Shown: in pieces, positions 2,411 through 59,130 of the stretch | How the letters are laid out: each line of letters begins with the position of its first letter | How positions within the stretch are numbered: position 1 is the first letter of the stretch | Assembly: GCA_050260415.1 (NCBI GenBank) | Contig: JBLNCE010000150.1 | Coordinates: forward strand, 5,313 to 69,312 | DNA length: 64,000 bases | Reading direction: 5' to 3' | Source of the DNA: Bacteroidota bacterium | GTDB taxonomy: Bacteria > Bacillota > UBA4882 > JAAYXC01 | Translations under genes and position numbers: made by a program | The notes under the pieces: model-generated | Told to the model about the DNA's origin: nothing | Databases searched by the model: none | The model's input: the letters and a program-made list of their open reading frames with translations, nothing else

Positions 2411-2486
2411 GCCAAGGTAGCTCAGATGGTAGAGCAGGGGACTGAAAATCCCCGTGTCGGCGGTTCGATTCCGTCCCTTGGCACCA
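2411..2486 (+). tRNA. tRNA-Phe (anticodon GAA), CCA encoded; prophage integration target
   Basis: Acceptor GCCAAGG/CCTTGGC, anticodon stem-loop GGGGA-CTGAAAA-TCCCC, T-arm GGCGG-TTCGATT-CCGTC. The 3' 46 nt are duplicated at 59083-59128. Confidence 0.92.
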
Positions 2487-2488
2487 TT
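2441..2488 (+). repeat. attL core (48-bp direct repeat, inside tRNA-Phe)
   Basis: ACTGAAAATCCCCGTGTCGGCGGTTCGATTCCGTCCCTTGGCACCATT is identical to 59083-59130. Confidence 0.9.
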
Positions 2489-2544: not shown

Positions 2545-2567
2545 GCTGTAATCAAATCGTAATCAAA
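2545..2567 (+). repeat. putative integrase arm-type binding sites (tandem GTAATCAAA)
   Basis: GCTGTAATCAAATCGTAATCAAA here versus GCTGTAATCAAATTGTAATCAAA at 58958-58980. Same orientation; each lies 57-103 bp from an att core. Confidence 0.5.
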
Positions 2568-2697: not shown

Positions 2698-3867
2698 CTA
2701 TGCACGGTATCTCGAGCGATCGGTGACGGCTTCTTCTCCCAACAACGCAACCGCCAGTTCCTGCATGGCGGCCTTCTTCCTGGCCATGCTGATATGGCCA
2801 TACGTATCCGCGGTTATCTGCACCCCGGCGTGCCGGGCGATGGCCGAGACCGTCTTAAGATCCACGCCCAGATCCAGGAGCAGAGAGATCGACGTGTGCC
2901 GCAGATCGTGCAGCCGCATATGAGGCAGTCCCGCGAACTCCAAATCCTCCCTGAATGCCTTATTCACATGGCTCACGTCTCGCGGATACCCAAGCGGATC
3001 CGTGAACAGCAGTGGGCCGTTCTCCCCGAGATCGGGGCAGGCCTCGCCAAGGTAGGCCCGTTCGTTCTCGCGCTGTTTAATAACCCTTTCGAACTCGGCG
3101 GCCAGGATAGGCAACAGCGGCAGTTCTGCCTCGCTGGCGTCGCTCTTAATCCAGAACTCCGGCTCCTTGCCTCCATGCACCAGGCCCTGAGTTATTTTCA
3201 CCACCAGCCGGTCAAGGTCAATGTCGGGGATTCGGATGCCTAGCAGTTCGGATCGGCGCAACGCCAGAAGTAGCAATGTCAGCCAGTACACCCAGCAAGG
3301 GCGCCCCCGTGTCACCCGTAGAAAGTGCTTTGCCTCTTCGACGGTCATCTGCCGGAATTTCTTCTTGTGTGCTCGCGGAGGATCGGTCAGCTTCGCCACA
3401 TTGGTTGTGATCAGTTGCCACTTGCAGGCCTGTTGTAGAGCCGCCCGTAGGGTTCGATGCGCATTGCGCACTGTCAGTGCCGACAGGCCTTTCGCGAGCA
3501 GGTCATGGTAGGCGTCTTGTATGATATCGGGAGTAAGCTTGCGGAGTAGATATTTCCCCAGCTTGGGACGCAGATAAAGCCGGATGTGCTTTTTATAGCC
3601 CCGTATTGTATTGGGGCTGAGGCCTTTTTTGTCTATATAGGCTTCCCAGCGGTCAAAGAAGGCGCTGACCTTTAGCTTGCTGTCAGGCAGAGGTTCTCCT
3701 TTATTGAGACGCGCCAGCATGTCCGCGCAATACGCTTCGGCATCGCGCTTGAGCCCGCGGATCGTCGCGGTATGATATTTCGGTGCGCCGGATTCATACC
3801 GCTCGCCAGTCGGGATGAAGACACGCCAAGAGCCTTTGCCCTGCGGTTGGATGTGCCCAGTGGCCAT
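2698..3867 (-). CDS. int: tyrosine recombinase / phage integrase
   Basis: C-terminal catalytic region HDLRHTSISLLLDLGVDLKTVSAIARHAGVQITADTYGHI (R..HxxR..Y pattern). N-terminal SAM-like domain. Adjacent to attL. Confidence 0.9.
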   Translation of the reverse strand: MATGHIQPQGKGSWRVFIPTGERYESGAPKYHTATIRGLKRDAEAYCADMLARLNKGEPLPDSKLKVSAFFDRWEAYIDKKGLSPNTIRGYKKHIRLYLRPKLGKYLLRKLTPDIIQDAYHDLLAKGLSALTVRNAHRTLRAALQQACKWQLITTNVAKLTDPPRAHKKKFRQMTVEEAKHFLRVTRGRPCWVYWLTLLLLALRRSELLGIRIPDIDLDRLVVKITQGLVHGGKEPEFWIKSDASEAELPLLPILAAEFERVIKQRENERAYLGEACPDLGENGPLLFTDPLGYPRDVSHVNKAFREDLEFAGLPHMRLHDLRHTSISLLLDLGVDLKTVSAIARHAGVQITADTYGHISMARKKAAMQELAVALLGEEAVTDRSRYRA

Positions 3868-4208: not shown

Positions 4209-4898
4209 CTATTTATTTGCAGCTAACTGGCGAGAAATATTGAGAATTACTTCACGATCCCGGTCCGTCATCCGTTTCGTCAGCCCGACCATTTGCGTCA
4301 GGAATCGCCGCCAGTCCTCCACGCTTTCACCTTCCAACTCAAGATCGGTCGTGTAGATCATCAACTTCTGCGGCGCATCCTCGGTGGTGGCTGTGCGTTT
4401 ATCTGGTCTGCCGAGCAAATTATCCAGCGACACGCCGAATTCATCCGCCAGGCGGCAGAGGATCGTGGCTTCCGGTATGGTGCCGAGCTCGTACCGCGTA
4501 ATGGCGGCATAGGTAACTCCCACTCTACGCGCCAGGTCGTCGCGTTCAATCCCGGCGGCCGCCCGCAACTCCTGCAGCCTGTCCGCGAATGCCCGTTCCA
4601 GATCCGGATCGCGTTGGCGGCTGGGGCGCGTTCTGGCGGCGCGTTCATCGGCGAGCATCATGGCATTCGCATCGTTGGGCAGATCACGCGAGATCCGCAC
4701 CAGGTCTGTCGGATCAAGCGCGAGGTGCGGCGCGATCTTCCATAATGTCTCGACCCGAGGCCTGGTCCTGCTTCCGGATTCAATCCGCGAAATTTCCGCA
4801 GAATCAACCCCGGCCAGCCGCGCCAATTCCCGTTGACTGAACCCACGTTCCTCCCGGCGCCGCCGTATGATAGCCGCGAGTGATTCCTCCGCCGCCAT
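4209..4898 (-). CDS. prophage repressor-like protein with two tandem XRE-type HTH domains
   Basis: Two HTH_3-like units (RGFSQRELARLAGVDSAEISRIESG and IERDDLARRVGVTYAAITRYELG). Start chosen at ATG 4898, preceded by GGAGAG. Divergent from the cro-like gene. Confidence 0.75.
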   Translation of the reverse strand: MAAEESLAAIIRRRREERGFSQRELARLAGVDSAEISRIESGSRTRPRVETLWKIAPHLALDPTDLVRISRDLPNDANAMMLADERAARTRPSRQRDPDLERAFADRLQELRAAAGIERDDLARRVGVTYAAITRYELGTIPEATILCRLADEFGVSLDNLLGRPDKRTATTEDAPQKLMIYTTDLELEGESVEDWRRFLTQMVGLTKRMTDRDREVILNISRQLAANK

Positions 4899-4920
4899 GC
4901 CAATCACTCTCCTTTTTTTG

Positions 4921-5001
4921 ATTATAGCAACTGATGACAACATGACAAAGCCCCCTTGACAAACTTACTGATGTCATTTATGATTGTCATCATGGGAGGT
5001 G
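4921..5001. promoter_or_regulatory. divergent lysogeny/lysis switch: two face-to-face promoters overlapped by TGTCAT(CA) operator half-sites
   Basis: Rightward: TTGACA (4956-4961), 17 nt, TATGAT (4979-4984), then GGGAGGTG RBS. Leftward: TTGTCA (rc of 4943-4948), 16 nt, TGcTATAAT (rc of 4921-4929). Half-sites at 4932-4939, 4942-4948, 4969-4976 and 4984-4992. Confidence 0.6.
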
Positions 5002-5009
5002 ACCATTGA

Positions 5010-5273
5010 TTGCAGAGATTTGTCATCAACCTCGATGAACTGCGAGCTTTGACGCGGGCGGCCAGGGTCTCGACCAGGGCCGAACTGGCCAGGGGATTCG
5101 GAATCGACCAGGCGGCGGCCACGCGCATGCTTCAAGGGAAGTACCGTTCCGTCAACGCCCAGACCGCTGAACGTATGAGGTCGTTTTTTCAGAACCGCGG
5201 TCTGGATCCCACAGCACTGTTCAAGGGAGATGCGCAAAATGAACAAGCAGCATCCGCAGAGCGAGCATCCTAA
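5010..5273 (+). CDS. Cro/antirepressor-like small HTH protein
   Basis: TTG start 8 nt after the GGGAGGTG RBS. STRAELARGFGIDQAAATRMLQG is HTH-like. Position is divergent from the repressor. Confidence 0.55.
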   Translation: MQRFVINLDELRALTRAARVSTRAELARGFGIDQAAATRMLQGKYRSVNAQTAERMRSFFQNRGLDPTALFKGDAQNEQAASAERAS

Positions 5274-13122: not shown

Positions 13123-13367
13123 AACCAAAGATGAGAACTTATGGCCATGCCCTATTCGAACTGCAAAGGGACGTCTATCCGACATGCAACCGTCCTGGTT
13201 GCCACAGGATCGCGCGGTATCACGCGCAGTATGAAGGACGCGAAAAAGATACTCTTATCATGGTTCGAGAGGCGCTCTGCCAGAAGCATGCAAAGGAATT
13301 CGCGGTACGGTACGCGCTGACGATGCCAGATGCCGTACCCATGGCCAAAACCCAGATCGGCAGGTGA
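13119..13367 (+). CDS. hypothetical protein
   Basis: 82-aa ORF, co-directional and translationally coupled upstream. Confidence 0.45.
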   Translation: MKPKMRTYGHALFELQRDVYPTCNRPGCHRIARYHAQYEGREKDTLIMVREALCQKHAKEFAVRYALTMPDAVPMAKTQIGR

Positions 13368-13371
13368 CACG

Positions 13372-14301
13372 ATGTCCGTTGAGCTTGGCGGCCATACACG
13401 CATCAAGAACGAGGTGATGGAGGACCTGGCCCTAGCCGGTCCGGTCCTCGGCATCCATGAATGGCCGATCGTCGTCCTGGTCATGCGTGACTCATGGGGA
13501 TGGGGCGGTGGAGCGACAAACTGGACGCACTCTGCCTGGTGGCCGGCCAAGTTCGCGGAGTACACCGGATTCCACCGGGAGAGCCTGAGCCGCGCCCTGG
13601 CCAACTTGATTCGGGATAACGTCCTGATGGTCCGGGAGGAGGCAGATGGGACCCACCTAGCTGTGAACGAGCACACCAAGACCTGGACCGGAGCGCACCA
13701 GGTAGCCATGGATCACCTTGACCGTGACAAATTATCACGTGATAAATCATCACGGAAGAAAACCGCAGTTCAATGGCGTGACAAATCATCACGTGATGAA
13801 TCATCACGGGGGGGTGTGACAAATCATCACGGGGGGCGTGATGAATCATCACACCCAACAGGGCTCAACCCAAATAATGATGAGGCTTCCGGCGATCCTA
13901 AAGAAAGATCTAAAGAAAAAGATCTTAAAGATGCTGCTGCTATAGGGGAGGGCAAAGGGATGGTTGACTTCGATCCGGATCCGGGATTCGCCCAGGTCGA
14001 GAAGAAGTTGTTTGAGATCACAGGCCGATTGAGCGCGGCTGACACCCTGGCGATCAATGAGGCTCTGAAGGGTGCGACGCCAGAGATTATCTGCCGTGTG
14101 ATGGATGAAAAGGCGGCTAAGTTCGTGCCCAAGTATGAAGGGCACAAGATCAGCAGTTTCGCTTATTTCGTACCGGCAATCCGTGAGGAGGTTGCAGGCA
14201 ATGGCAAACATGGCAAACGGAGAATGGGGAGCCGCTCCCATAGCGCTCGGAACGACATTGCGGCCGGAAATGCGGACTATGCTGGACTCGTCCTGCGGTA
14301 A
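13372..14301 (+). CDS. phage replication initiator (lambda O-like N-terminal winged-helix) containing the iteron array
   Basis: N-terminal region (HTRIKNEVMEDLA...LVMRDSWGWG...FAEYTGFHRESLSRALANLIRDNVL) resembles replication protein O/replisome organiser N-domains. Followed by the DnaC-like loader. Internal iterons. Confidence 0.6.
   Translation: MSVELGGHTRIKNEVMEDLALAGPVLGIHEWPIVVLVMRDSWGWGGGATNWTHSAWWPAKFAEYTGFHRESLSRALANLIRDNVLMVREEADGTHLAVNEHTKTWTGAHQVAMDHLDRDKLSRDKSSRKKTAVQWRDKSSRDESSRGGVTNHHGGRDESSHPTGLNPNNDEASGDPKERSKEKDLKDAAAIGEGKGMVDFDPDPGFAQVEKKLFEITGRLSAADTLAINEALKGATPEIICRVMDEKAAKFVPKYEGHKISSFAYFVPAIREEVAGNGKHGKRRMGSRSHSARNDIAAGNADYAGLVLR
13724..13853 (+). repeat. six 16-nt iterons (putative phage ori) inside the initiator gene
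   Basis: GTGA(C/T)(A/G)AAT(C/T)ATCAC(G/A) at 13724, 13740, 13778, 13794, 13816 and 13838. The best copies are 7-1-7 palindromes (GTGATGA-A-TCATCAC). Confidence 0.7.
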
Positions 14302-15118
14302 CCGCCGGATTGTTATCGGCAAACGGGGTCAATGCCCCGACTGCGGCCAGGCCTATGAGCGCCGGACCTATGAAGGCCGGCTGACGGCCTGGACGCCGGT
14401 CTGTGGCTGCCTTGACAAGCGCATCGCCGCCGAGAGGAAGCGTCTGTGCGAAGATGCCGTGCGGCGCATCCGGCAGGATCGGATCGCTGAACTGTTAGAG
14501 CAGGCCCGCCTTGGCCCCAGGTTCGCCGAGGCGACGTTCGAGGGATATCATGATAGGCCGGGCACACGCCGGGCGTATCTGGAGGCCAGAGCCCTAGTGG
14601 AGCACTGGCCGGAACGGTCAAAGCGGGGCGAGGGATTGCTCCTGATCGGTCCCTGGGGGACGAGCAAGAGCTTCCTAGCCGCAGCCATCGTCAATGCACT
14701 GGTCAAGCGCGGTATGTCCGCGGTCTTCCAGAGCGTGCCCGACCTGCTGCGGCGGTTCCGGGCCACTTACGATCCGAGCAGTGCGGTCAGCGAATCGGCC
14801 ATCCTTGATGCGCTGGCCGAGGCCGATCTCCTGGTCTTAGACGATCTGGGCGCCGAGCGGTGGACCGAATGGACCGAGTCCCAACTGTACCAGGTGATTG
14901 ATGCCCGTTATCGCTGGCGGCGACCCCTGGTCGTCACCACGAACTTACAACTTGGTGGAGAAATCGAGAACACCATCGGATATCGGACGATGGATCGCCT
15001 GGTCGAGATGTGCCGCATGATCGAGACCTCCGGCCCCAGCCTGCGGGTCATGCAGGCGGAGGCGCGGAAACGGCAAGAACAGGCCAGCGGGGAGGGGCTG
15101 AAGGCGAATGAAGCTTAG
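14201..15118 (+). CDS. DnaC/IstB-like AAA+ helicase loader
   Basis: Walker A GPWGTSKS, Walker B LLVLDDLG, sensor TTNL. N-terminal CPDC...CGC zinc motif. Start at 14201 follows GAGGAGG but could be 14270/14279. Confidence 0.8.
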   Translation: MANMANGEWGAAPIALGTTLRPEMRTMLDSSCGNRRIVIGKRGQCPDCGQAYERRTYEGRLTAWTPVCGCLDKRIAAERKRLCEDAVRRIRQDRIAELLEQARLGPRFAEATFEGYHDRPGTRRAYLEARALVEHWPERSKRGEGLLLIGPWGTSKSFLAAAIVNALVKRGMSAVFQSVPDLLRRFRATYDPSSAVSESAILDALAEADLLVLDDLGAERWTEWTESQLYQVIDARYRWRRPLVVTTNLQLGGEIENTIGYRTMDRLVEMCRMIETSGPSLRVMQAEARKRQEQASGEGLKANEA

Positions 15119-28857: not shown

Positions 28858-29328
28858 ATGGTGCTCGCGGAGATCAGCAAGGCGCGGACCCCGGCGAAGG
28901 GAGATCCAGGCGGGCAGCAGGTTGAGAGGGTCGTCGCCTTCAAGCGTGTCGATTCGGCGCAACAGATCGTCTATGGGGAGGTCTACATCCCCAATGTCCG
29001 GGACACGCACGGGAACTGGATGACAGCCGAGGAAATTGAGAAGATGGCCCACCGGTTCCTCATGAAGTTCCGCAATACACAGATCGACCTGCAGCACGAC
29101 ATGGAGCCTGATGAGGGCGCCGTGGTCGAGTCGTTCATCGCCCGCGAGAACGACCCCGACTTCACCCCGGGGGCCTGGGTACTGGCAACCAAGGTCTTCA
29201 AGACCGAGACCTGGACGGCCATCATGAACGGGGAGATCACCGGGTATTCCCTATATGGCCTGGGTGTTTTAATTCCTGACGAACCCGATGACGAGGGCGG
29301 AGAGGGAGGTGATACGGGTGGCCAATAA
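28858..29328 (+). CDS. XkdF-like prohead protease
   Basis: VYGEVYIPNVRDTHGNWMTAEEIEKMAHRFL resembles the PBSX XkdF family. GGGAGGTGG RBS. Precedes the scaffold and capsid genes. Confidence 0.6.
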   Translation: MVLAEISKARTPAKGDPGGQQVERVVAFKRVDSAQQIVYGEVYIPNVRDTHGNWMTAEEIEKMAHRFLMKFRNTQIDLQHDMEPDEGAVVESFIARENDPDFTPGAWVLATKVFKTETWTAIMNGEITGYSLYGLGVLIPDEPDDEGGEGGDTGGQ

Positions 29329-30181
29329 CCAGACCCCGCCGCCTGGGGAGCTTCGTGACGTCGATGTGCAGCTCGTGTCCCTGGTCGATAAGGGCGCGAA
29401 CCGCTGCAAGTTCAAGATCTTCAAGCAGGCAGGTGAGATCGTGAACAAGGTTTTGGGTAAACAGGATACGGCCATAGCGCCGGCACCGCCGCCGAGCTTC
29501 CAACAGCGCATGCAGGCCGAGGCCGCCGAGGAAGCGACCAGGAACGGTTTCTGGGCGTTCCGTTCGACGATTGAGGATATCCTGCGCAGTGAAGCCGTAA
29601 CGGACAAGCTCGCGGCGATCGGCGCGACCTTCGAGGAGTTCAAGACCTGGCTCCTGGCGCGGGTGACTCTCCTGGGCCTCACCAAGGCGGCCGAGGAGAT
29701 CAGCAGCATCGAGCGGGTTGTGCTCGAAAAGGCCGGCAAGAAGATCAGCGCCGAACGGTTAGGCAAACTCAAGGCAGCCTTGGCTGCCCTCAATGAGGTC
29801 GTGACCGAGGCCGAGACGGAAGACAACAATCCGGAAGGGGGAAAAACGAACGTGAGTAATTCCACCACGCAGACCCAGCCCGACAAGCTGGACGAGATCC
29901 TGAAGGCGGTGAACGGCATCGCCACCCGCGTCGAGGCTTTGGAAAAGGCCGCGGCGGGGACCGAACCGCCCACAGGCGATCCGCCGGCAGAAGAACCTCC
30001 CGCGGGCAACCCGCCGACCGACCAAACCGCGCAGAAGCTCGACGAGGTGCTCAAGACTGTCAATGGCATCGCCACCCGCGTCGAGGCTTTGGAGAAAGCC
30101 CGCGGCGGTTCCAACCGGATCCCCGAAACGACCGAAGTCAAAAAGGCTGAAGAGGGATTCTGGGGCGGCAATTTCATCTAG
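29318..30181 (+). CDS. scaffolding protein with an internal duplication
   Basis: Helical, Ala/Glu/Lys-rich. Duplicated KLDE(I/V)LK(A/T)VNGIATRVEALEKA segments separated by a Pro-rich linker. Position is before the major capsid gene. Confidence 0.6.
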   Translation: MANNQTPPPGELRDVDVQLVSLVDKGANRCKFKIFKQAGEIVNKVLGKQDTAIAPAPPPSFQQRMQAEAAEEATRNGFWAFRSTIEDILRSEAVTDKLAAIGATFEEFKTWLLARVTLLGLTKAAEEISSIERVVLEKAGKKISAERLGKLKAALAALNEVVTEAETEDNNPEGGKTNVSNSTTQTQPDKLDEILKAVNGIATRVEALEKAAAGTEPPTGDPPAEEPPAGNPPTDQTAQKLDEVLKTVNGIATRVEALEKARGGSNRIPETTEVKKAEEGFWGGNFI

Positions 30182-46417: not shown

Positions 46418-47866
46418 ATGTCGACAACCACTCCGCGGTACGGCCTGATCAAAAACGCGGTTACTGACTACCAGGACGACGCCATAGTCGCGAACCAGGC
46501 TGCCAACATGGAGAAAATCGAGCAGGAACTCGGCGAGCGGGAGGACGCGATGACTGCCCACCAGACGGCCGCCGAGCTCGCCCACCCGAACAGCAGCGTG
46601 ACCGACGTCAAGATTGGGAACCGCACCATCGCGGACAACCAGGCGCCCGGCAGCGCTACCGGCTTGCTCAGTGTTCTCCTAAACGGGATCGGATACATCA
46701 TCAAGGCGATCACGGGCAAGGCCAATTGGTACACGGCACCGGCTATTAGCCTGGAGACATTGAGCATTCACAAGACGCGGCACCAGCCTGGCGGTGCTGA
46801 CGCGCTTCCCACGGCTGCCCCGGCGGGTCTAGGTACGGCGGCGCAAGAGGGTGCGAGCACAAGTTTTGCGCGGGCCGATCACGTGCACGCGGCACTTGAC
46901 AGCACCAACCCTGCAGACGTGGGAACGGCAGCCGCTCCCGGATCTGCCACCGTGGCGGCCAGGAGGGATCATGTTCACAAACTCGGCGCTGGCTCGGCGA
47001 CTGATACGGCTATCGGCAATAGGACAATCAGTGACGCTAGTGCTCCCACCGGAGACAGCGGGGCCATCACTACGCTTTTCGGTTGGCTCGCGTACATGAT
47101 CAAAGCTATCACGGGTAAGAGCAATTGGCGGACGGCTCCGGCGATTAACCTGGAGAGTGTGAATGGGAAATTTGACGGCACCACGGGCCACAATCACGAT
47201 GGAACGGCCGGCAAAGGTCCCAAGATCGGTTCTGGCGGACTTGCAAACGATGCGGCAACTGATACAATAATTGGTAATAGGACGATTGCGGATACATCGG
47301 CCCCGACCAGCGATACCGGGACACTGACGAACCTGTTTTCCTGGTTGGGGTATATGATCAAGGCTATCACGGGTAAAAGCAATTGGCGGATGGCGCCGGC
47401 GACTACCCTGGAAGCCGCCAGCACATTTGCACCGCCGGGCATGATTGCAGCGTTTGGGCGTGACACTGCTCCTGCAGGATGGCTGGAATGCAACGGCACG
47501 GAGGTTTCCCGGACCACATACGCCGCGTTATTCGCTGCAATTGGCACGACGTTCGGTAATGGTGATGGTTCAACTACATTCAATCTGCCAGACTTACGTG
47601 GTGAGTTTATCCGTGGCTGGGATCACTTGCGCGGAATAGACCCTGCCCGGGCATTGGGCAGTGCGCAAAGTGATCAGCTAAAAAGCCACACGCACAGTGT
47701 TGTCAAGGCAAATTACGACACTGGAACGAGCGGGGGTAGTGCTACAGGAATTGTACTAGATGAGCGTACCCCGCCTTACGATGTCAGTTTTCCATTCTTA
47801 AGTTCTACCGGGGGCACGGAGACCCGGCCGCGCAACGTCGCCTTGATGTATTGCATAAAATTCTAA
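46418..47866 (+). CDS. tail fibre with three tandem repeats and a C-terminal phage tail-collar domain
   Basis: Triplicated IGNRTI(A/S)D..AP...G.L..L(F/L).W(L/I)(A/G)Y(M/I)IKAITGK(A/S)NW units. Collar motif YAALFAAIGTTFGNGDGSTTFNLPDLRGEFIRG. Confidence 0.8.
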   Translation: MSTTTPRYGLIKNAVTDYQDDAIVANQAANMEKIEQELGEREDAMTAHQTAAELAHPNSSVTDVKIGNRTIADNQAPGSATGLLSVLLNGIGYIIKAITGKANWYTAPAISLETLSIHKTRHQPGGADALPTAAPAGLGTAAQEGASTSFARADHVHAALDSTNPADVGTAAAPGSATVAARRDHVHKLGAGSATDTAIGNRTISDASAPTGDSGAITTLFGWLAYMIKAITGKSNWRTAPAINLESVNGKFDGTTGHNHDGTAGKGPKIGSGGLANDAATDTIIGNRTIADTSAPTSDTGTLTNLFSWLGYMIKAITGKSNWRMAPATTLEAASTFAPPGMIAAFGRDTAPAGWLECNGTEVSRTTYAALFAAIGTTFGNGDGSTTFNLPDLRGEFIRGWDHLRGIDPARALGSAQSDQLKSHTHSVVKANYDTGTSGGSATGIVLDERTPPYDVSFPFLSSTGGTETRPRNVALMYCIKF

Positions 47867-54739: not shown

Positions 54740-55032
54740 TGTCGATCACCATCCCGCTTTGTTTCGTCAAGAAACCTCTTCAGACGACAGTCAGGTAGAT
54801 GTCCGTAGGCCGTAAACCGCCCGCATATCTCACATGCCAAACCACCAGGCCCGTCTATCCATTCAAGCTTAGTGAGTAGCTCGCGGGCCTCTTTGACCAA
54901 ACGGGTCAGCACCTTGACGCCGGTTTCGTCCATCAGGGCGCCAAGAGAATCTATAGGTTCGTTTGGGCCGAGGAGCAACGCATCGGCGCGCCGCTTAAAT
55001 TCTCGAATCTCCGTCTCCGTCACGATCATCAC
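54736..55032 (-). CDS. hypothetical protein
   Basis: 98-aa ORF. ATGA overlap with the DUF5131-like gene. Confidence 0.5.
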   Translation of the reverse strand: MMIVTETEIREFKRRADALLLGPNEPIDSLGALMDETGVKVLTRLVKEARELLTKLEWIDGPGGLACEICGRFTAYGHLPDCRLKRFLDETKRDGDRQ

Positions 55033-55793
55033 CTCCGTTTTGGTTCCGCAATAGCTGCCAACGCCGGCGGCAGCTCCCTTATGGGGAAGCGCTCCGCTAG
55101 TTCCCCCTTGACCCAGACCGGCACGTTATGCCGCCGGCATTCGATGATCAGGCTCTGAACCTGATTGTCAAGCGACCACTGAGCGGTAGATGTCTTTCCT
55201 CCGGTCAATTGGCCGATGACAGCCCACTTGACGCGCCGCCAAAGGGCATCCTCCATGGAGACCAAGCCAAGGAGAGGCTCGAAGGAGACCCATCCGTTCT
55301 CTTCAGGGAGTGACTGAACGCGCCATCGATCCCCGAGGCAGGTTACGGTCACGCCAAACCACCAGTTCTGATACATGGCCCAATCCTCGTGAGCTCGTCT
55401 CCATTGGCGATAGCGCCGGGCCATGTTCTCCGGGCACTTGGTCAGGAACAGATGAGCATGCCGCGGCGGGATGGGGATCGTCGGTTTCAGCGCACAGGCA
55501 TCCAACACGGCTTGCTGACGCTCTGCCGGTACCGCCGGATGCCACAAGTCGCCCATGTCCTGCACGAAGATCCGCTTCGGCTGGCCGGTCATGGGGTACA
55601 GGGCTGGAAGCCGCTCCGGGTGCCAATGGGGGACGAAGGCGCGGCACTCGGGGCACTCGACCAGATTGCGCTTGGCGAACCGTTTGGCGAAGCAATATGG
55701 GCATGGTCTGGGATCCGCCGCCGTACCCTCCGGCCCGTAGCACCCCCAACCGAGTGGATTGACTGTCTCGTCCACGTAATCAATCCTGGTCAT
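55029..55793 (-). CDS. phage Gp37/Gp68 family protein (DUF5131-like)
   Basis: N-terminal IDYVDETVNPLGWGC...CPYCFAKRFAKR and later FVQDMGDLWH match the remembered DUF5131 pattern. Confidence 0.65.
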   Translation of the reverse strand: MTRIDYVDETVNPLGWGCYGPEGTAADPRPCPYCFAKRFAKRNLVECPECRAFVPHWHPERLPALYPMTGQPKRIFVQDMGDLWHPAVPAERQQAVLDACALKPTIPIPPRHAHLFLTKCPENMARRYRQWRRAHEDWAMYQNWWFGVTVTCLGDRWRVQSLPEENGWVSFEPLLGLVSMEDALWRRVKWAVIGQLTGGKTSTAQWSLDNQVQSLIIECRRHNVPVWVKGELAERFPIRELPPALAAIAEPKRR

Positions 55794-55973: not shown

Positions 55974-57059
55974 TCACGCTACGACGGCCAATTCGCGCCA
56001 CTGGCTGGCCGGCAACGTGATGATCTCCCCGCCGACCCGCTCCAGGTCCGTGGCCCTCTCGTAGTCGTCGGCGGTATTGGCCAGGTTGGTCACGGCATTG
56101 GCAAGGCCCCACTGGCTAAGGTCGCCACCCTCGATGAGCCGCCGCAGCAGGCCGCCGCGCTCGTGCTCCCGCATGCTGAACCGCTCGACGACGCGATCCA
56201 GGACGGTCTCGACCGGCGCCTCAATCCGGCGGGTGCTGGCGTCCACGACTGTACCGCGGAGCTTCCCGAACTCCACCTCGTCGAAGGCGGACCGGATCAC
56301 ATCCTGGACCTGCATCATGAATGCCTTGTCCGTGGCCTTGCGGGTCTCGTCCCGGAAGAGCTCATAAAGGCTGTCCATGCCTTCGGCGCGCCGGCCGAGG
56401 TGGAACTTGCGCATGGCCCGGTCATTGATGACTGCACCGTTGAGGCAAACCAGACGATATAGAAGCGGCTCGACACAAACCGCACCAAGCCCGACTTCGG
56501 AGTTGGAAATCGAGATCCCGGCCTGGACAACGTCACCCTTTTTGACCTCAAAGGACAAACGTTCGGTCGTGACCTTGATGTACAGGTGCCGGTCGGTAAC
56601 CTCCGCCGAGACGACCTGCATCTGCTTGTCCTCCAGGAGGACGGGCAGCGCGACTTCGGCCAGGTCATAGTTGTCGATGGTGCGGTACCGGTCGCTGAGG
56701 AAGGCGCGCACATTACCGTCTAGGGTCCTAACGAGGCGCGGCGTGTTCTGGCGATTGAGCCAGAAGTTCAATTCGTTCGCGGCCATGATCGGGGAAGCGT
56801 TCTTCAGGCGCCCGTAATATTGGGCAGGGACGTTTGCGAATTCGCGGATCTGCCCCTCGGCCAGGCGGGTCAAAGGGAGGGTCTGGGCCTGGTCGTCGCG
56901 GCCCATGGTGAGGGTGAATGTGAGTTCGCCGTCATTTTGCATTGCTTGGGGGGTAGGGGCGATCTCCATCAGGTTGGTCGGGGCGACGTAATCCTTCTTG
57001 GTTTCGAGCTGGCGCTCCAGCTCACGAGCGAGGTCTACGAGAGAACGTCCTTCTTTCAT
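55974..57059 (-). CDS. DUF932-family (phage/plasmid-like) protein
   Basis: RAFLSDRYRTIDNYDL...GISISNSEVGLGA...RLVCLNG resembles DUF932/TIGR03299 proteins of plasmids, ICEs and phages. Confidence 0.65.
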   Translation of the reverse strand: MKEGRSLVDLARELERQLETKKDYVAPTNLMEIAPTPQAMQNDGELTFTLTMGRDDQAQTLPLTRLAEGQIREFANVPAQYYGRLKNASPIMAANELNFWLNRQNTPRLVRTLDGNVRAFLSDRYRTIDNYDLAEVALPVLLEDKQMQVVSAEVTDRHLYIKVTTERLSFEVKKGDVVQAGISISNSEVGLGAVCVEPLLYRLVCLNGAVINDRAMRKFHLGRRAEGMDSLYELFRDETRKATDKAFMMQVQDVIRSAFDEVEFGKLRGTVVDASTRRIEAPVETVLDRVVERFSMREHERGGLLRRLIEGGDLSQWGLANAVTNLANTADDYERATDLERVGGEIITLPASQWRELAVVA

Positions 57060-57300: not shown

Positions 57301-57470
57301 TGATGACAATATGTCTATGTCATCATGATAGACTGTCATCGACAATTTGTCAATAGGGGTGATGTAAATTGTCATCGGGGGGGGGGCTGAGACGTTTCGC
57401 CGCTTACTTATCGATGCCAGTAAGATATATAGCGATAGATATATATCGCAATTGATAGATCGAGCAGGGA
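57301..57470. promoter_or_regulatory. divergent control region: TGTCATCA operator copies, a G10 tract and an AT-rich repeat block (candidate centromere/operator of the TubR-like protein)
   Basis: TGATGACA-n9-TGTCATCA (57301-57325), further half-sites at 57334-57340 and 57369-57376, G10 at 57377-57386. GCGATA-GATATA-TATCGC palindrome (57432-57449) and GATAGAT repeats. Confidence 0.5.
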
Positions 57471-57483
57471 AGGGGGTGAAAAG

Positions 57484-57777
57484 GTGCTATGTGACGCATG
57501 CCGGACGGCCTTGGCGCGCGAGTTTGGCCCGGAGGAGTATCGCGTCCTCGATGTTCTGTTGAACGGCGGCGCTGTAGATCGGGCCATGGCCATGGCAAGA
57601 GAGGACATTCTGGCGAACTGTGATTCGTTGACCCTTGCGCGATTGCGGGATACTCTGTTGCGATTGTCCGCGACCAGGATGATCGATATCACCAATGGCC
57701 GGCGCGGCCTGGTCTACCTGACCGAGGATGGAACGGCAGCATTAAGAGCGTTCAAACGTGGAGGTGGACGAAGTTGA
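57484..57777 (+). CDS. winged-helix DNA-binding protein (TubR-like by position)
   Basis: 97 aa, GTG start after GGGGGTG. MarR/wHTH-like LTLARLRDTLLRLSATRMIDITNGRRGLVYLTEDG. Overlaps the start of the tubulin-like gene. Confidence 0.5.
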   Translation: MLCDACRTALAREFGPEEYRVLDVLLNGGAVDRAMAMAREDILANCDSLTLARLRDTLLRLSATRMIDITNGRRGLVYLTEDGTAALRAFKRGGGRS

Positions 57778-58901
57778 TCAAAATTGGAGTCGTGGGAGTC
57801 GGCCAGGCCGGAGGGAACATCGCCGCCGAATTCGGCAAATTGGGACATGAGAAGGCGGCCATCAACCTGAGCCTGGCTGATTTACGATCGCTGGAGGATC
57901 TCATTCCGGCACGGCTGACATTGGAGACCGGGGCCGGCGCGGCCAAGGACCCCGCGGAAGGATTCCGGGCCCTGGAGCGGAACGCGCAGCGGGTCATGGA
58001 ATTTCTGCGGCAGCAGTTCGCCGATTGCCAGGCGATCCTGGTGTCATTCAGCCTCGGGGGGGGGACCGGTTCCGGAGCCGGCCCGGGGGTCGTCGACCTG
58101 GCTGCGAACGTGTTCCCCGGGCGGCCGGTCGGGGCCATCGTCGTGCTCCCGGCCACCGAAGAGGCGCCCGTGGCCCAGGAGAACGCGGTCGAGGCATTCG
58201 CGGACCTGAGCAAGGTACGCGCCGGCGCAGTCCTGGTGGTGGACAATCAGCGGGCTTTCGAACTTCTGCGTGCGGAAAAGGCAGACGCTGGCCGCCGGGA
58301 ATTGTTCGAGGTCACAAACGGGACGGTCGCGCGGCTGGTCGACGATCTGATTAAGGTTCCCAGCATGGCCAGCGAACTGGGGAACGTGGATGAGGCGGAG
58401 GTCCTCGCTCTTCTTGGTGAACGCGGCCTGATGGTCATCGGGGAGGCCATTCTGACGGATGACGGCTGCGGGCCATCGAACGTGGCAGATACCGCAACGT
58501 TGATTCAGTACAGCCTGGAGAAAGGGGTATTCGTGCCGGCGGCCGGACGCGCAACGAAAGCGGCTGTGATCTGGCAGGCTCCCGCGGAGTGGACGCGGCA
58601 TCTCCGGATCTCCGAGGCATTGGATCCCTTGCCTGGGGAGGTCTTCGAGGGGATCTACGACGACGCGCGGGGGCGTATCCTGACTGTGCTCGCCGGTTTG
58701 CCCTGGCCGCTGACCCGGTTACATGACATCGAAAGCCGGCTTGAGTCGGCCAGGCCGGTCCTGGAGGAGACGGCGGCCGCGGTGCAGTCGATGGAGTACG
58801 AGCCGCGGGTCAAACCGGTCCTGGCAAGGAGGCCGCTTGGCGGCGGAGACGGGGAGCCGAGCGTGGAGGAGATACTCGGGAGGCATCGGCGGAGGCGGTA
58901 A
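57774..58901 (+). CDS. tubulin/FtsZ-superfamily GTPase (TubZ/PhuZ-like)
   Basis: T1 loop GVGQAGGN and tubulin signature T4 SLGGGTGSGAGP in the correct order and spacing. VVDNQ T7-like segment. TTG start after GGAGGTGG. Confidence 0.75.
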   Translation: MIKIGVVGVGQAGGNIAAEFGKLGHEKAAINLSLADLRSLEDLIPARLTLETGAGAAKDPAEGFRALERNAQRVMEFLRQQFADCQAILVSFSLGGGTGSGAGPGVVDLAANVFPGRPVGAIVVLPATEEAPVAQENAVEAFADLSKVRAGAVLVVDNQRAFELLRAEKADAGRRELFEVTNGTVARLVDDLIKVPSMASELGNVDEAEVLALLGERGLMVIGEAILTDDGCGPSNVADTATLIQYSLEKGVFVPAAGRATKAAVIWQAPAEWTRHLRISEALDPLPGEVFEGIYDDARGRILTVLAGLPWPLTRLHDIESRLESARPVLEETAAAVQSMEYEPRVKPVLARRPLGGGDGEPSVEEILGRHRRRR

Positions 58902-58917
58902 TGCTGCTTGGCGAGAC

Positions 58918-58947
58918 GGGGGAGAGACAGCTCTCTCCCGTTTTTTT
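58918..58947 (+). terminator. intrinsic terminator after the tubulin-like gene
   Basis: GGGAGAG-loop-CTCTCCC hairpin followed by GTTTTTTT. Confidence 0.7.
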
Positions 58948-58957
58948 GATCGTCATG

Positions 58958-58980
58958 GCTGTAATCAAATTGTAATCAAA
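58958..58980 (+). repeat. putative integrase arm-type sites (attR side)
   Basis: GCTGTAATCAAATTGTAATCAAA; one mismatch compared with 2545-2567. Confidence 0.5.
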
Positions 58981-59082: not shown

Positions 59083-59130
59083 ACTGAAAATCCCCGTGTC
59101 GGCGGTTCGATTCCGTCCCTTGGCACCATT
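59083..59130 (+). repeat. attR core (orphan 3' part of tRNA-Phe)
   Basis: Identical to 2441-2488. Lacks the tRNA 5' half, so it is not a functional tRNA. Confidence 0.9.

Follow-up and report, generated by a model that had tools for sequence, protein, structure and literature searches.

A predicted TubR-TubZ module on a temperate prophage integrated at tRNA-Phe

Introduction

Why should a phage that integrates into the chromosome of its host carry a tubulin-based segregation cassette? The question is raised by a 64,000-nucleotide stretch of contig JBLNCE010000150.1 (the window), in which a prophage carries near one end two overlapping genes, here called tubR and tubZ. A preliminary description of the window, made from the sequence, had recognised a 375-aa open reading frame (ORF) with tubulin/FtsZ GTP-binding loops and a small winged-helix-like ORF in front of it, and had called a segregation or positioning cytoskeleton unexpected in such an element. 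Work on tubulin-type DNA segregation has so far been confined to plasmids of Bacillus and Clostridium, the plasmid prophage c-st and, in another form, lytic jumbo phages. The TubR-DNA and TubZ filament steps are established for pBtoxis and c-st. Every TubZRC system characterised to date belongs to an extrachromosomal replicon (PMC6009700, PMC8026635), and a survey of integrative conjugative elements reported type I and type II partition systems and no type III (PMC5587801).

We report that the cassette is, as judged by sequence homology and a structural model, a genuine TubR-TubZ module and a homologue of the type III partition systems of plasmids. TubR and TubZ as parts are known; their setting, a tRNA-integrating temperate phage of ordinary size, is new. 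In the literature that we searched, whose coverage is incomplete, we found no account of TubRZ on a phage that integrates.

The 375-aa GTPase

The T1 loop of the 375-aa protein reads GVGQAGGN and its T4 loop, GGGTGSG, lies within SLGGGTGSGAGP, both where the preliminary description had placed them. A T7 loop of the form N-x-D-x-x-E, which that description lacked, is found as GNVDEAE at residues 203-209 (N204, D206 and E209). T1, T4 and T7, the last as N-x-D-x-x-(D/E), are invariant across the family alignment. In FtsZ and tubulin, intact T1, T4 and T7 residues are needed for polymerisation-activated GTPase activity. The Pfam Tubulin/FtsZ model PF00091 matches residues 3-164 (E=8e-21). The gene starts with TTG, seven bases 3' of the ribosome-binding site GGAGGTGG.

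An AlphaFold (AF2) model built from 14 family members was confident, with a predicted local distance difference test score (pLDDT) of 83.6 and a predicted template-modelling score (pTM) of 0.86, and it shows two tubulin domains. In the model, the C-terminus consists of a long helix (residues 313-334), a disordered linker (334-359) and a short terminal helix (364-372); the protein ends in the basic peptide ILGRHRRRR. When the model was compared with the PDB by Foldseek, the top matches were 2xka (B. thuringiensis TubZ), 3v3t/4xcq (c-st TubZ) and 4ei7 (B. cereus TubZ), with query-normalised TM-scores (TMq) of 0.69-0.78. FtsZ and CetZ reached about 0.62 and 0.70, respectively, with E-values that are all alike; the Foldseek probability was 1.0 for both TubZ and FtsZ structures, and the best E-value belonged to 2xka. 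Among predicted viral structures (BFVD), the best matches were unnamed "FtsZ" proteins of uncultured phages. Profile and structure comparison thus agree on a tubulin/FtsZ fold, as the motifs had led the preliminary description to expect, with TubZ as the best structures.

By sequence, the closest characterised relative is TubZ of the Priestia (Bacillus) megaterium plasmid pBM400, whose "FtsZ" gene and its relatives were found by tblastn against plasmids. The two proteins are 28% identical from residue 15 to the last residue (E=7e-39). In phmmer comparisons, the window protein scored 157.6 bits with TubZ of pBM400 (TubZ-Bm), 45.6 with c-st TubZ, 38-57 with FtsZ proteins, 15.2 with TubZ of pBtoxis (TubZ-Bt) and 4.9 with PhuZ of phiKZ. 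We made a neighbour-joining tree with TubZ-Bm, TubZ-Bt, c-st TubZ, PhuZ, FtsZ and CetZ-like proteins, and it supports only the clade of the window protein and its relatives L001 and L003 (96%). These alignments place the protein in the pBM400-like branch of TubZ, and alignments and model together identify it as a tubulin/FtsZ-fold GTPase of TubZ type.

Two other identities were considered and rejected. The FtsZ equivalog model TIGR00065 gave 63.7 bits, far under its cut-off of 295.2, the FtsZ C-terminal domain PF12327 had no match in the Pfam scan of the protein, and the gene lies inside a prophage; on these grounds it was not taken for FtsZ. A likeness to PhuZ, suggested in the preliminary description, did not hold up: the PhuZ family phrog_4733 gave an insignificant E=0.085, the phmmer score with phiKZ PhuZ is the lowest above, and PhuZ-type proteins in BFVD are clearly more distant from the model (TMq 0.55-0.63). 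The best PHROG family is phrog_17961, whose function is unassigned.

The 97-aa partner

The 3' end of tubR overlaps the start of tubZ by 4 nt (GTTGA), which suggests translational coupling. The small protein has only one close homologue in a collection of 5.8 billion proteins. A five-sequence profile that included the partners from related loci had as its top PDB match 4ASN, the TubR of pBM400 (E=9e-5), aligned over partner residues 8-91 and 4ASN residues 6-89; by hhalign, the partner matched TubR with E=4e-4. The 101-aa product of the gene upstream of pBM400 tubZ is identical to the 4ASN sequence. Seeded with the window protein, a jackhmmer search of all 5,855 ORFs from the collected loci, to which three reference TubRs had been added, converged on 83 proteins, of which 71 are encoded directly upstream of a TubZ-like gene, 9 slightly further upstream, and 3 are the reference TubRs; no unrelated protein was in the converged set. 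The E-values were 6e-22 for pBM400 TubR (TubR-Bm), 1.6e-19 for c-st TubR and 5e-11 for pBtoxis TubR (TubR-Bt). On this homology, the partner is a TubR. The type III gene order proposed in the preliminary description is borne out by the full-length alignment of the GTPase to pBM400 TubZ and by the family of its partner.

Both genes are under purifying selection, as indicated by ratios of nonsynonymous to synonymous substitution (dN/dS) of about 0.10 for tubZ (window versus L001, dS about 1) and 0.095 for tubR (window versus L090). The operon is closed by an intrinsic terminator with the same layout in the relatives L001 and L002. No tubY-like gene follows tubZ; the terminator and then the att site come directly after it. 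No PADLOC defence model matched TubZ or TubR, and an Rfam search of the cassette region found nothing.

The TubR proteins of the window, L001, L002, L003, L090 and L010 form a subclade with an invariant N-terminal CxxC (residues 3-6, 57490-57501 in the window), which is missing from TubR-Bm, TubR-Bt and c-st TubR. The two cysteines might bind metal or form a disulphide where the subunits of the dimer meet.

DNA upstream of tubR

The intergenic region 5' of tubR is 194 bp long and has two parts, called here blocks A and B, which behave differently. Block A, whose repeats (57301-57377) were absent from the preliminary description, holds the palindrome TGATGACA-N9-TGTCATCA at 57301-57325 and is kept in L001, L002 and L090. 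The window has 19 copies of the half-site TGTCATCR, compared with 4.3 expected. Clusters of at least three sites within 120 bp, with one mismatch allowed, were found only in block A and at 4932-5028, and none of 100 shuffles reached a cluster of four. The second cluster lies between the genes for the CI-like repressor and the cro-like protein, where TGATGTCA-N8-TGTCATCA overlaps a TTGACA-17-TATGAT promoter. As an operator motif, TGATG(A/T)CA-N8-9-TGTCATCA clusters at exactly these two places, the CI/Cro region and the divergent promoter beside tubRZ. In the prophage, 52 kb separate the two clusters; once the element is circular, about 4 kb, across attP, would lie between them. This suggests an arrangement like OR and OL of phage lambda, in which block A is likened to OL/PL as the second operator region.

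Because its half-sites otherwise cluster only at the CI/Cro region, block A is best read from its sequence as an immunity operator over the leftward promoter and not as tubC. The promoter would drive a leftward operon of a 69-aa ORF and the DUF932, DUF5131 and RusA genes. Judged by the location of the sites, the CI-like repressor (4209-4943) is the probable binder of the TGTCATCA operators. Block A was also tried as tubC and rejected: its half-sites are common to the immunity region and do not co-vary with TubR.

Block B, an AT-rich stretch, lies nearer to tubR. Its palindrome GCGATA-N6-TATCGC (57432-57449) and the two copies of GATAGAT (57434-57440 and 57454-57460, 20 bp apart) had been noted in the preliminary description and were found at those positions. 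It also contains a 16-nt tandem repeat of ATATATMGCRATWGAT at 57425-57456 and a -10 candidate of the form TAnnAT, TAAGAT at 57421-57426, which is kept in all relatives. Compared with L090, the window is 81% identical in TubZ, 78% in block A, 79% in TubR and 68% in block B; compared with L001, the values are 86%, 74%, 50% and 42%, respectively. The divergence of block B follows that of TubR, whereas TubZ and block A are conserved, as would be expected if block B were the site recognised by the adaptor. On this basis block B is our best candidate for tubC and autoregulation, and TubR is predicted to bind it.

Between the operator block and the candidate tubC lies a G10 homopolymer (57377-57386), which is G5 in the relatives. 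It could be slippage-prone, or it could be a sequencing or assembly artefact.

The prophage

The element matches the preliminary account of an approximately 56-kb prophage with a tyrosine integrase and a tRNA att site (Table 1). It is 56,642 bp long and is integrated at tRNA-Phe between exact 48-nt repeats that consist of the last 46 bases of the tRNA gene and two more. Besides the CI-like repressor and the cro-like protein, its gene products include a RecE-like exonuclease, an SbcC-like protein, a helicase, an O/DnaD-like initiator, a DnaC-like loader, a RusA-like resolvase, a large terminase, portal, protease, tail sheath, tape measure and amidase. From this gene content, the element looks like a complete temperate prophage of myovirus type.

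Paired copies of GTAATCAAA lie 57 bp and about 100 bp from the att core and are partly conserved in L001 and L002. Since the pairs flank the core on both sides, they are probably integrase arm-type sites. For the same reason, these repeats were rejected as tubC.

Table 1. Positions of the cassette and of related prophage features in the window
Feature	Position	Strand	Remarks
tRNA-Phe	2411-2486
attL core	2441..2488	+	within tRNA-Phe
GTAATCAAA tandem pair	2548-2567		other side of att
Tyrosine integrase	2698..3867	-	Xer/integrase family models
CI-like repressor	4209..4943	-	two helix-turn-helix regions; PHROG transcriptional repressor families
Immunity-region operator cluster	4932..5028	.	with PR-like promoter TTGACA-17-TATGAT ahead of cro-like gene
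cro-like gene	5010-5273
DUF5131	55029-55793	-	leftward operon opposite tubRZ
DUF932, phage/plasmid-like protein	55974-57059	-	leftward operon opposite tubRZ
Block A, immunity-type operator cluster	57301..57377	.	four TGTCATCR half-sites
Leftward sigma-70-like promoter	57325..57353	-	TTGACA-17-TATCAT; 11/12 consensus matches; conserved in relatives
Block B, candidate tubC/TubR operator and tubRZ promoter leader	57400..57470	.
tubR	57484..57777	+	97-aa adaptor with winged-helix sequence pattern
tubZ, tubulin/FtsZ-fold GTPase	57774..58901	+	375 aa
Intrinsic terminator closing tubRZ operon	58920..58947	+	8-bp stem, then T run
GTAATCAAA twice, candidate integrase arm-type site	58961..58980	+	on P arm
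attR	59083..59130	+	copy of tRNA-Phe 3' end

The DUF5131/DUF932 pair is kept in L001 and L002; the DUF5131 protein resembles a radical-SAM mobile-pair protein A and matches the PADLOC candidates PDC-M41B and PDC-M30B. In the structural-gene region, a 113-nt direct repeat in three copies (46643-47412) lies inside a 482-aa ORF (46418-47866), and a 66-nt direct repeat in two copies (29885-30100) lies inside the ORF at 29288-30181. The host flank of the prophage carries a PfkB kinase gene, whose product has no named relative with more than 47% identity.

Relatives of the cassette

The closest relative is 85% identical (loci L001 and L002). It has the order DUF5131, DUF932, small ORF, tubR-tubZ, terminator, GTAATCAAA and tRNA-Phe 3' end, and it lies at that 3' end in another host flank and was therefore integrated independently. 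A 47% relative is on a phage contig, after the lysis genes. A third, L008 (27%), is a prophage with an integrase next to host genes at one of its ends, and its tubR-tubZ pair lies inside the rightward early operon, directly before a DnaD-like replication gene. At least two relatives adjoin host genes. In IMG/VR, 100 viral contigs encode relatives. Of the 88 TubZ-bearing loci examined, 81 have a small ORF whose end coincides with the TubZ start or lies close to it. When 1.84 billion representatives were searched with the family profile, 769 protein clusters (50% identity) matched at E<=1e-30.

Among the isolated phages in the collection, only the 498-kb Bacillus phage G has a detectable TubZ relative, gene 138 (JN638751.1, 78698-79666), which is 25% identical and annotated without a function. 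The metagenome-assembled genome with L001 and L091 (GCA_050260175.1) is labelled "Patescibacteria group bacterium", yet it has a prophage of the 56-kb class and genes for aconitase and a LiaF-like protein; its label or binning looks doubtful.

A TubZ relative of about 370 aa (about 29% identity) was also found in chromosomes of Bacillaceae, including Neobacillus, Niallia, Mesobacillus and others (L004-L007, L092-L170). A profile scan of genome contigs returned mainly this chromosomal clade of Neobacillus, and the gene spans dozens of Neobacillus species. Where gene tables were available, its neighbours are metabolic and transporter genes and no TubR-like ORF lies upstream of it, and it appears to be a stand-alone orphan tubulin homologue.

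Could the cassette be directed at the host? The tubulin homologue might interfere with host FtsZ or with division of the cell, or keep out other phages, and the small protein might serve only as a transcriptional regulator. The cassette does lie at the edge of the prophage with its own terminator, like a moron, and the related gene fixed without a partner in Neobacillus chromosomes would suit such a role. The partner is, however, a member of the TubR adaptor family, a comparison with the PADLOC defence models gave no match, and the TubZ-type C-terminal tail together with the TubR-TubZ pairing in most of the loci favours an adaptor-motor mechanism. We regard a host-directed or defence role as very improbable.

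Proposed role of TubRZ

Since the chromosome already segregates the integrated copy, the substrate of the cassette should be extrachromosomal phage DNA. We lean towards the view that TubRZ positions or segregates the excised, replicating phage DNA and is thereby the tubulin counterpart of AlpAC, the actin-type system from which the analogy is drawn. TubR would bind the short iterons in block B (57400-57470), which lie just in front of its own operon and in the operon's leader, and binding would both repress the operon and mark the phage DNA. TubZ, whose T7 loop is intact, would polymerise with GTP into filaments, and its basic C-terminal tail would engage the TubR-DNA complex. These predicted steps follow the pBtoxis and c-st systems (PMC6009700). 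The cassette would act after infection, or after induction and excision, either to position or spread replicating genomes or to hold them until integration or packaging. The intergenic region shared with immunity-type operators would tie the tubRZ locus to the lysis-lysogeny switch. Its adjacency to these operators and the early-operon position in L008 fit expression of tubRZ in the lytic or early programme.

Several points weigh against this reading. By sequence, the GTPase is about equally far from c-st TubZ and from FtsZ, and very far from TubZ-Bt. The deeper nodes of the neighbour-joining tree have less than 50% bootstrap support, and therefore we claim no deep placement. The AlphaFold model of the partner, made from only two sequences, was too poor (pLDDT 51) to confirm the winged helix suggested in the preliminary description; for this reason the fold is taken from homology to TubR. 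The co-variation of block B and TubR is based on two comparisons only. Known tubC sites lie upstream of tubR, have split direct repeats and an overlapping promoter and cover about 130-350 bp (PMC6009700), compared with about 60 bp and 2-4 short repeats in our candidate. A good -35 element for a tubRZ promoter was not found, and the immunity repressor may control tubRZ or only the leftward operon.

The pair might instead start or sustain replication of the phage DNA, as has been reported for the RepX/TubZ replicons of Bacillus plasmids. The tubZ gene serves as the replicon marker of the pBsph-like plasmid p1593 (PMC13239906), the L008 pair directly precedes a replication gene, and the copy number of prophage CGP3 falls two-fold without AlpAC (PMC4446434). 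The window phage, however, has a separate and complete replication module with its own iterons 43 kb away, and beside tubRZ we found neither an origin-like iteron array nor an AT-rich unwinding element of the usual size. A replicon or accessory replication function therefore seems to us improbable. The iterons of the module are three copies of the 21-nt GTGAYRAATCATCACGGGGGG (13739-13836) inside the O/DnaD-like initiator gene (13330-14301), and they are probably the phage replication origin, as in lambda.

It may also be asked whether the phage has a dual lifestyle and persists at times as a low-copy episome, with TubRZ as a classical partition system as in c-st. The extrachromosomal carriage of all characterised TubZRC systems speaks for this, as does the fact that the closest characterised homologues are on plasmid pBM400, which itself has an integrase gene 2 kb upstream. 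Many related gut-phage loci also have an extra short tyrosine recombinase that could resolve multimers. Yet two independent relatives were captured integrated at tRNA-Phe, no plasmid-type replication or protelomerase function turned up among the ORFs scanned, and replication appears to be of the lambda kind (O-like initiator, DnaC-like loader, iterons within the initiator gene). No episomal contig of the phage was found; the 99%-identical host contigs L171 and L172 break within the att core, and L002 ends within it. We therefore consider a dual lifestyle unlikely.

The short tyrosine recombinase (about 220 aa) lies 3-5 kb 3' of tubZ in about 25 IMG/VR loci (e.g. L016-L024 and L032-L036). In L008 it is found at 13998-14663, in addition to the full-length integrase. 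It may be a multimer resolvase, a plasmid-like trait.

A conserved and selected TubR-TubZ pair on a tRNA-integrating phage of ordinary size implies that a cytoskeletal motor has a job in the short time for which phage DNA is free in the cell, and the recurrence of the pair on many contigs of uncultured phages is in line with this. With two genes and a candidate site of about 60 bp, the system is a compact model for the coupling of adaptor and filament, in which adaptor and site appear to have co-diverged and the motor is conserved. A broader proposal is offered only tentatively: TubR-TubZ modules, so far unstudied in this setting, could be widespread among the integrating temperate phages that infect Bacillota-like hosts, as a tubulin apparatus wired to the lysis-lysogeny switch that segregates or positions the phage genome in its extrachromosomal phase, be it before integration, in pseudolysogeny or forespore capture, or during replication after excision. 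"Partition" systems would in that case have a general role in phages other than those living as plasmids.

Comparison with known systems

The cassette shares with type III systems the TubZ fold with T1, T4 and T7, a long helix and tail in the model, and an adjacent overlapping TubR. It departs from them in its carrier, in its compact candidate centromere and in the intergenic region shared with an immunity operator. Type III carriers are low-copy and extrachromosomal, whereas this element and its relative are integrated at tRNA-Phe. TubY, which is not universal and is known from c-st and some Bacillus systems, does not occur here.

The pBM400 system is the most similar. In both, tubR comes first and overlaps tubZ by 4 nt; TubR has about 100 aa, and TubZ has 374 aa compared with 375 aa here. 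Both TubZ proteins end in a peptide of the form ...IL-x-(K/R)(Y/H)-x-(K/R/N)R, ILGRHRRR in the window and ILDKYQNR in pBM400. The carrier of the pBM400 system is a 54-kb plasmid and not a tRNA-integrated phage, its TubR lacks the CxxC of the window TubR, and its upstream non-coding region has 640 bp compared with 194 bp here, which are shared with a divergent promoter predicted to be under immunity control.

The TubZRC(Y) system of Clostridium botulinum phage c-st is likewise phage-borne, with a homologous TubR and a structural match of TubZ (3v3t, TMt 0.85), although the sequence similarity of the TubZ proteins is weak. Unlike the integrating phage described here, c-st is a 186-kb non-integrating plasmid prophage; its tubC covers about 350 bp compared with about 60 bp for our candidate, and it has a downstream MerR-type TubY (CST188). 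The pBtoxis TubZRC and pXO1-type RepX/TubZ systems resemble the cassette in fold (4ei7, TMq 0.78) and in operon logic, and TubR-Bt is homologous. They differ in being carried by large virulence plasmids, and TubZ-Bt is a distant protein of 484 aa with N- and C-terminal extensions. The window protein had been described as shorter than typical TubZ; this is true only in comparison with the pBtoxis type, as c-st TubZ has 358 aa and pBM400 TubZ is of nearly equal length.

PhuZ of the nucleus-forming jumbo phages phiKZ and 201phi2-1 is also a phage-encoded member of the tubulin superfamily that positions phage DNA. It has no TubR partner, has another C-terminal tail, and belongs to lytic phages of more than 200 kb.

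AlpAC/alpS of the integrated Corynebacterium glutamicum prophage CGP3 is the closest parallel in setting, a cytoskeletal motor with a co-transcribed adaptor on an integrated prophage (PMC4446434). It is of actin type (ParM-like) and has no sequence homology to TubRZ. Its adaptor binds repeats upstream of its own operon, and the system acts on excised CGP3 DNA after induction, raises the phage DNA copy number and, when lost, leaves that number lowered as described above (PMC4446434). Because this precedent exists in an integrated prophage, a positioning cytoskeleton on an integrating phage is less unexpected than the preliminary description had held, and the predicted TubRZ module would extend the parallel from an actin-type to a tubulin-type motor.

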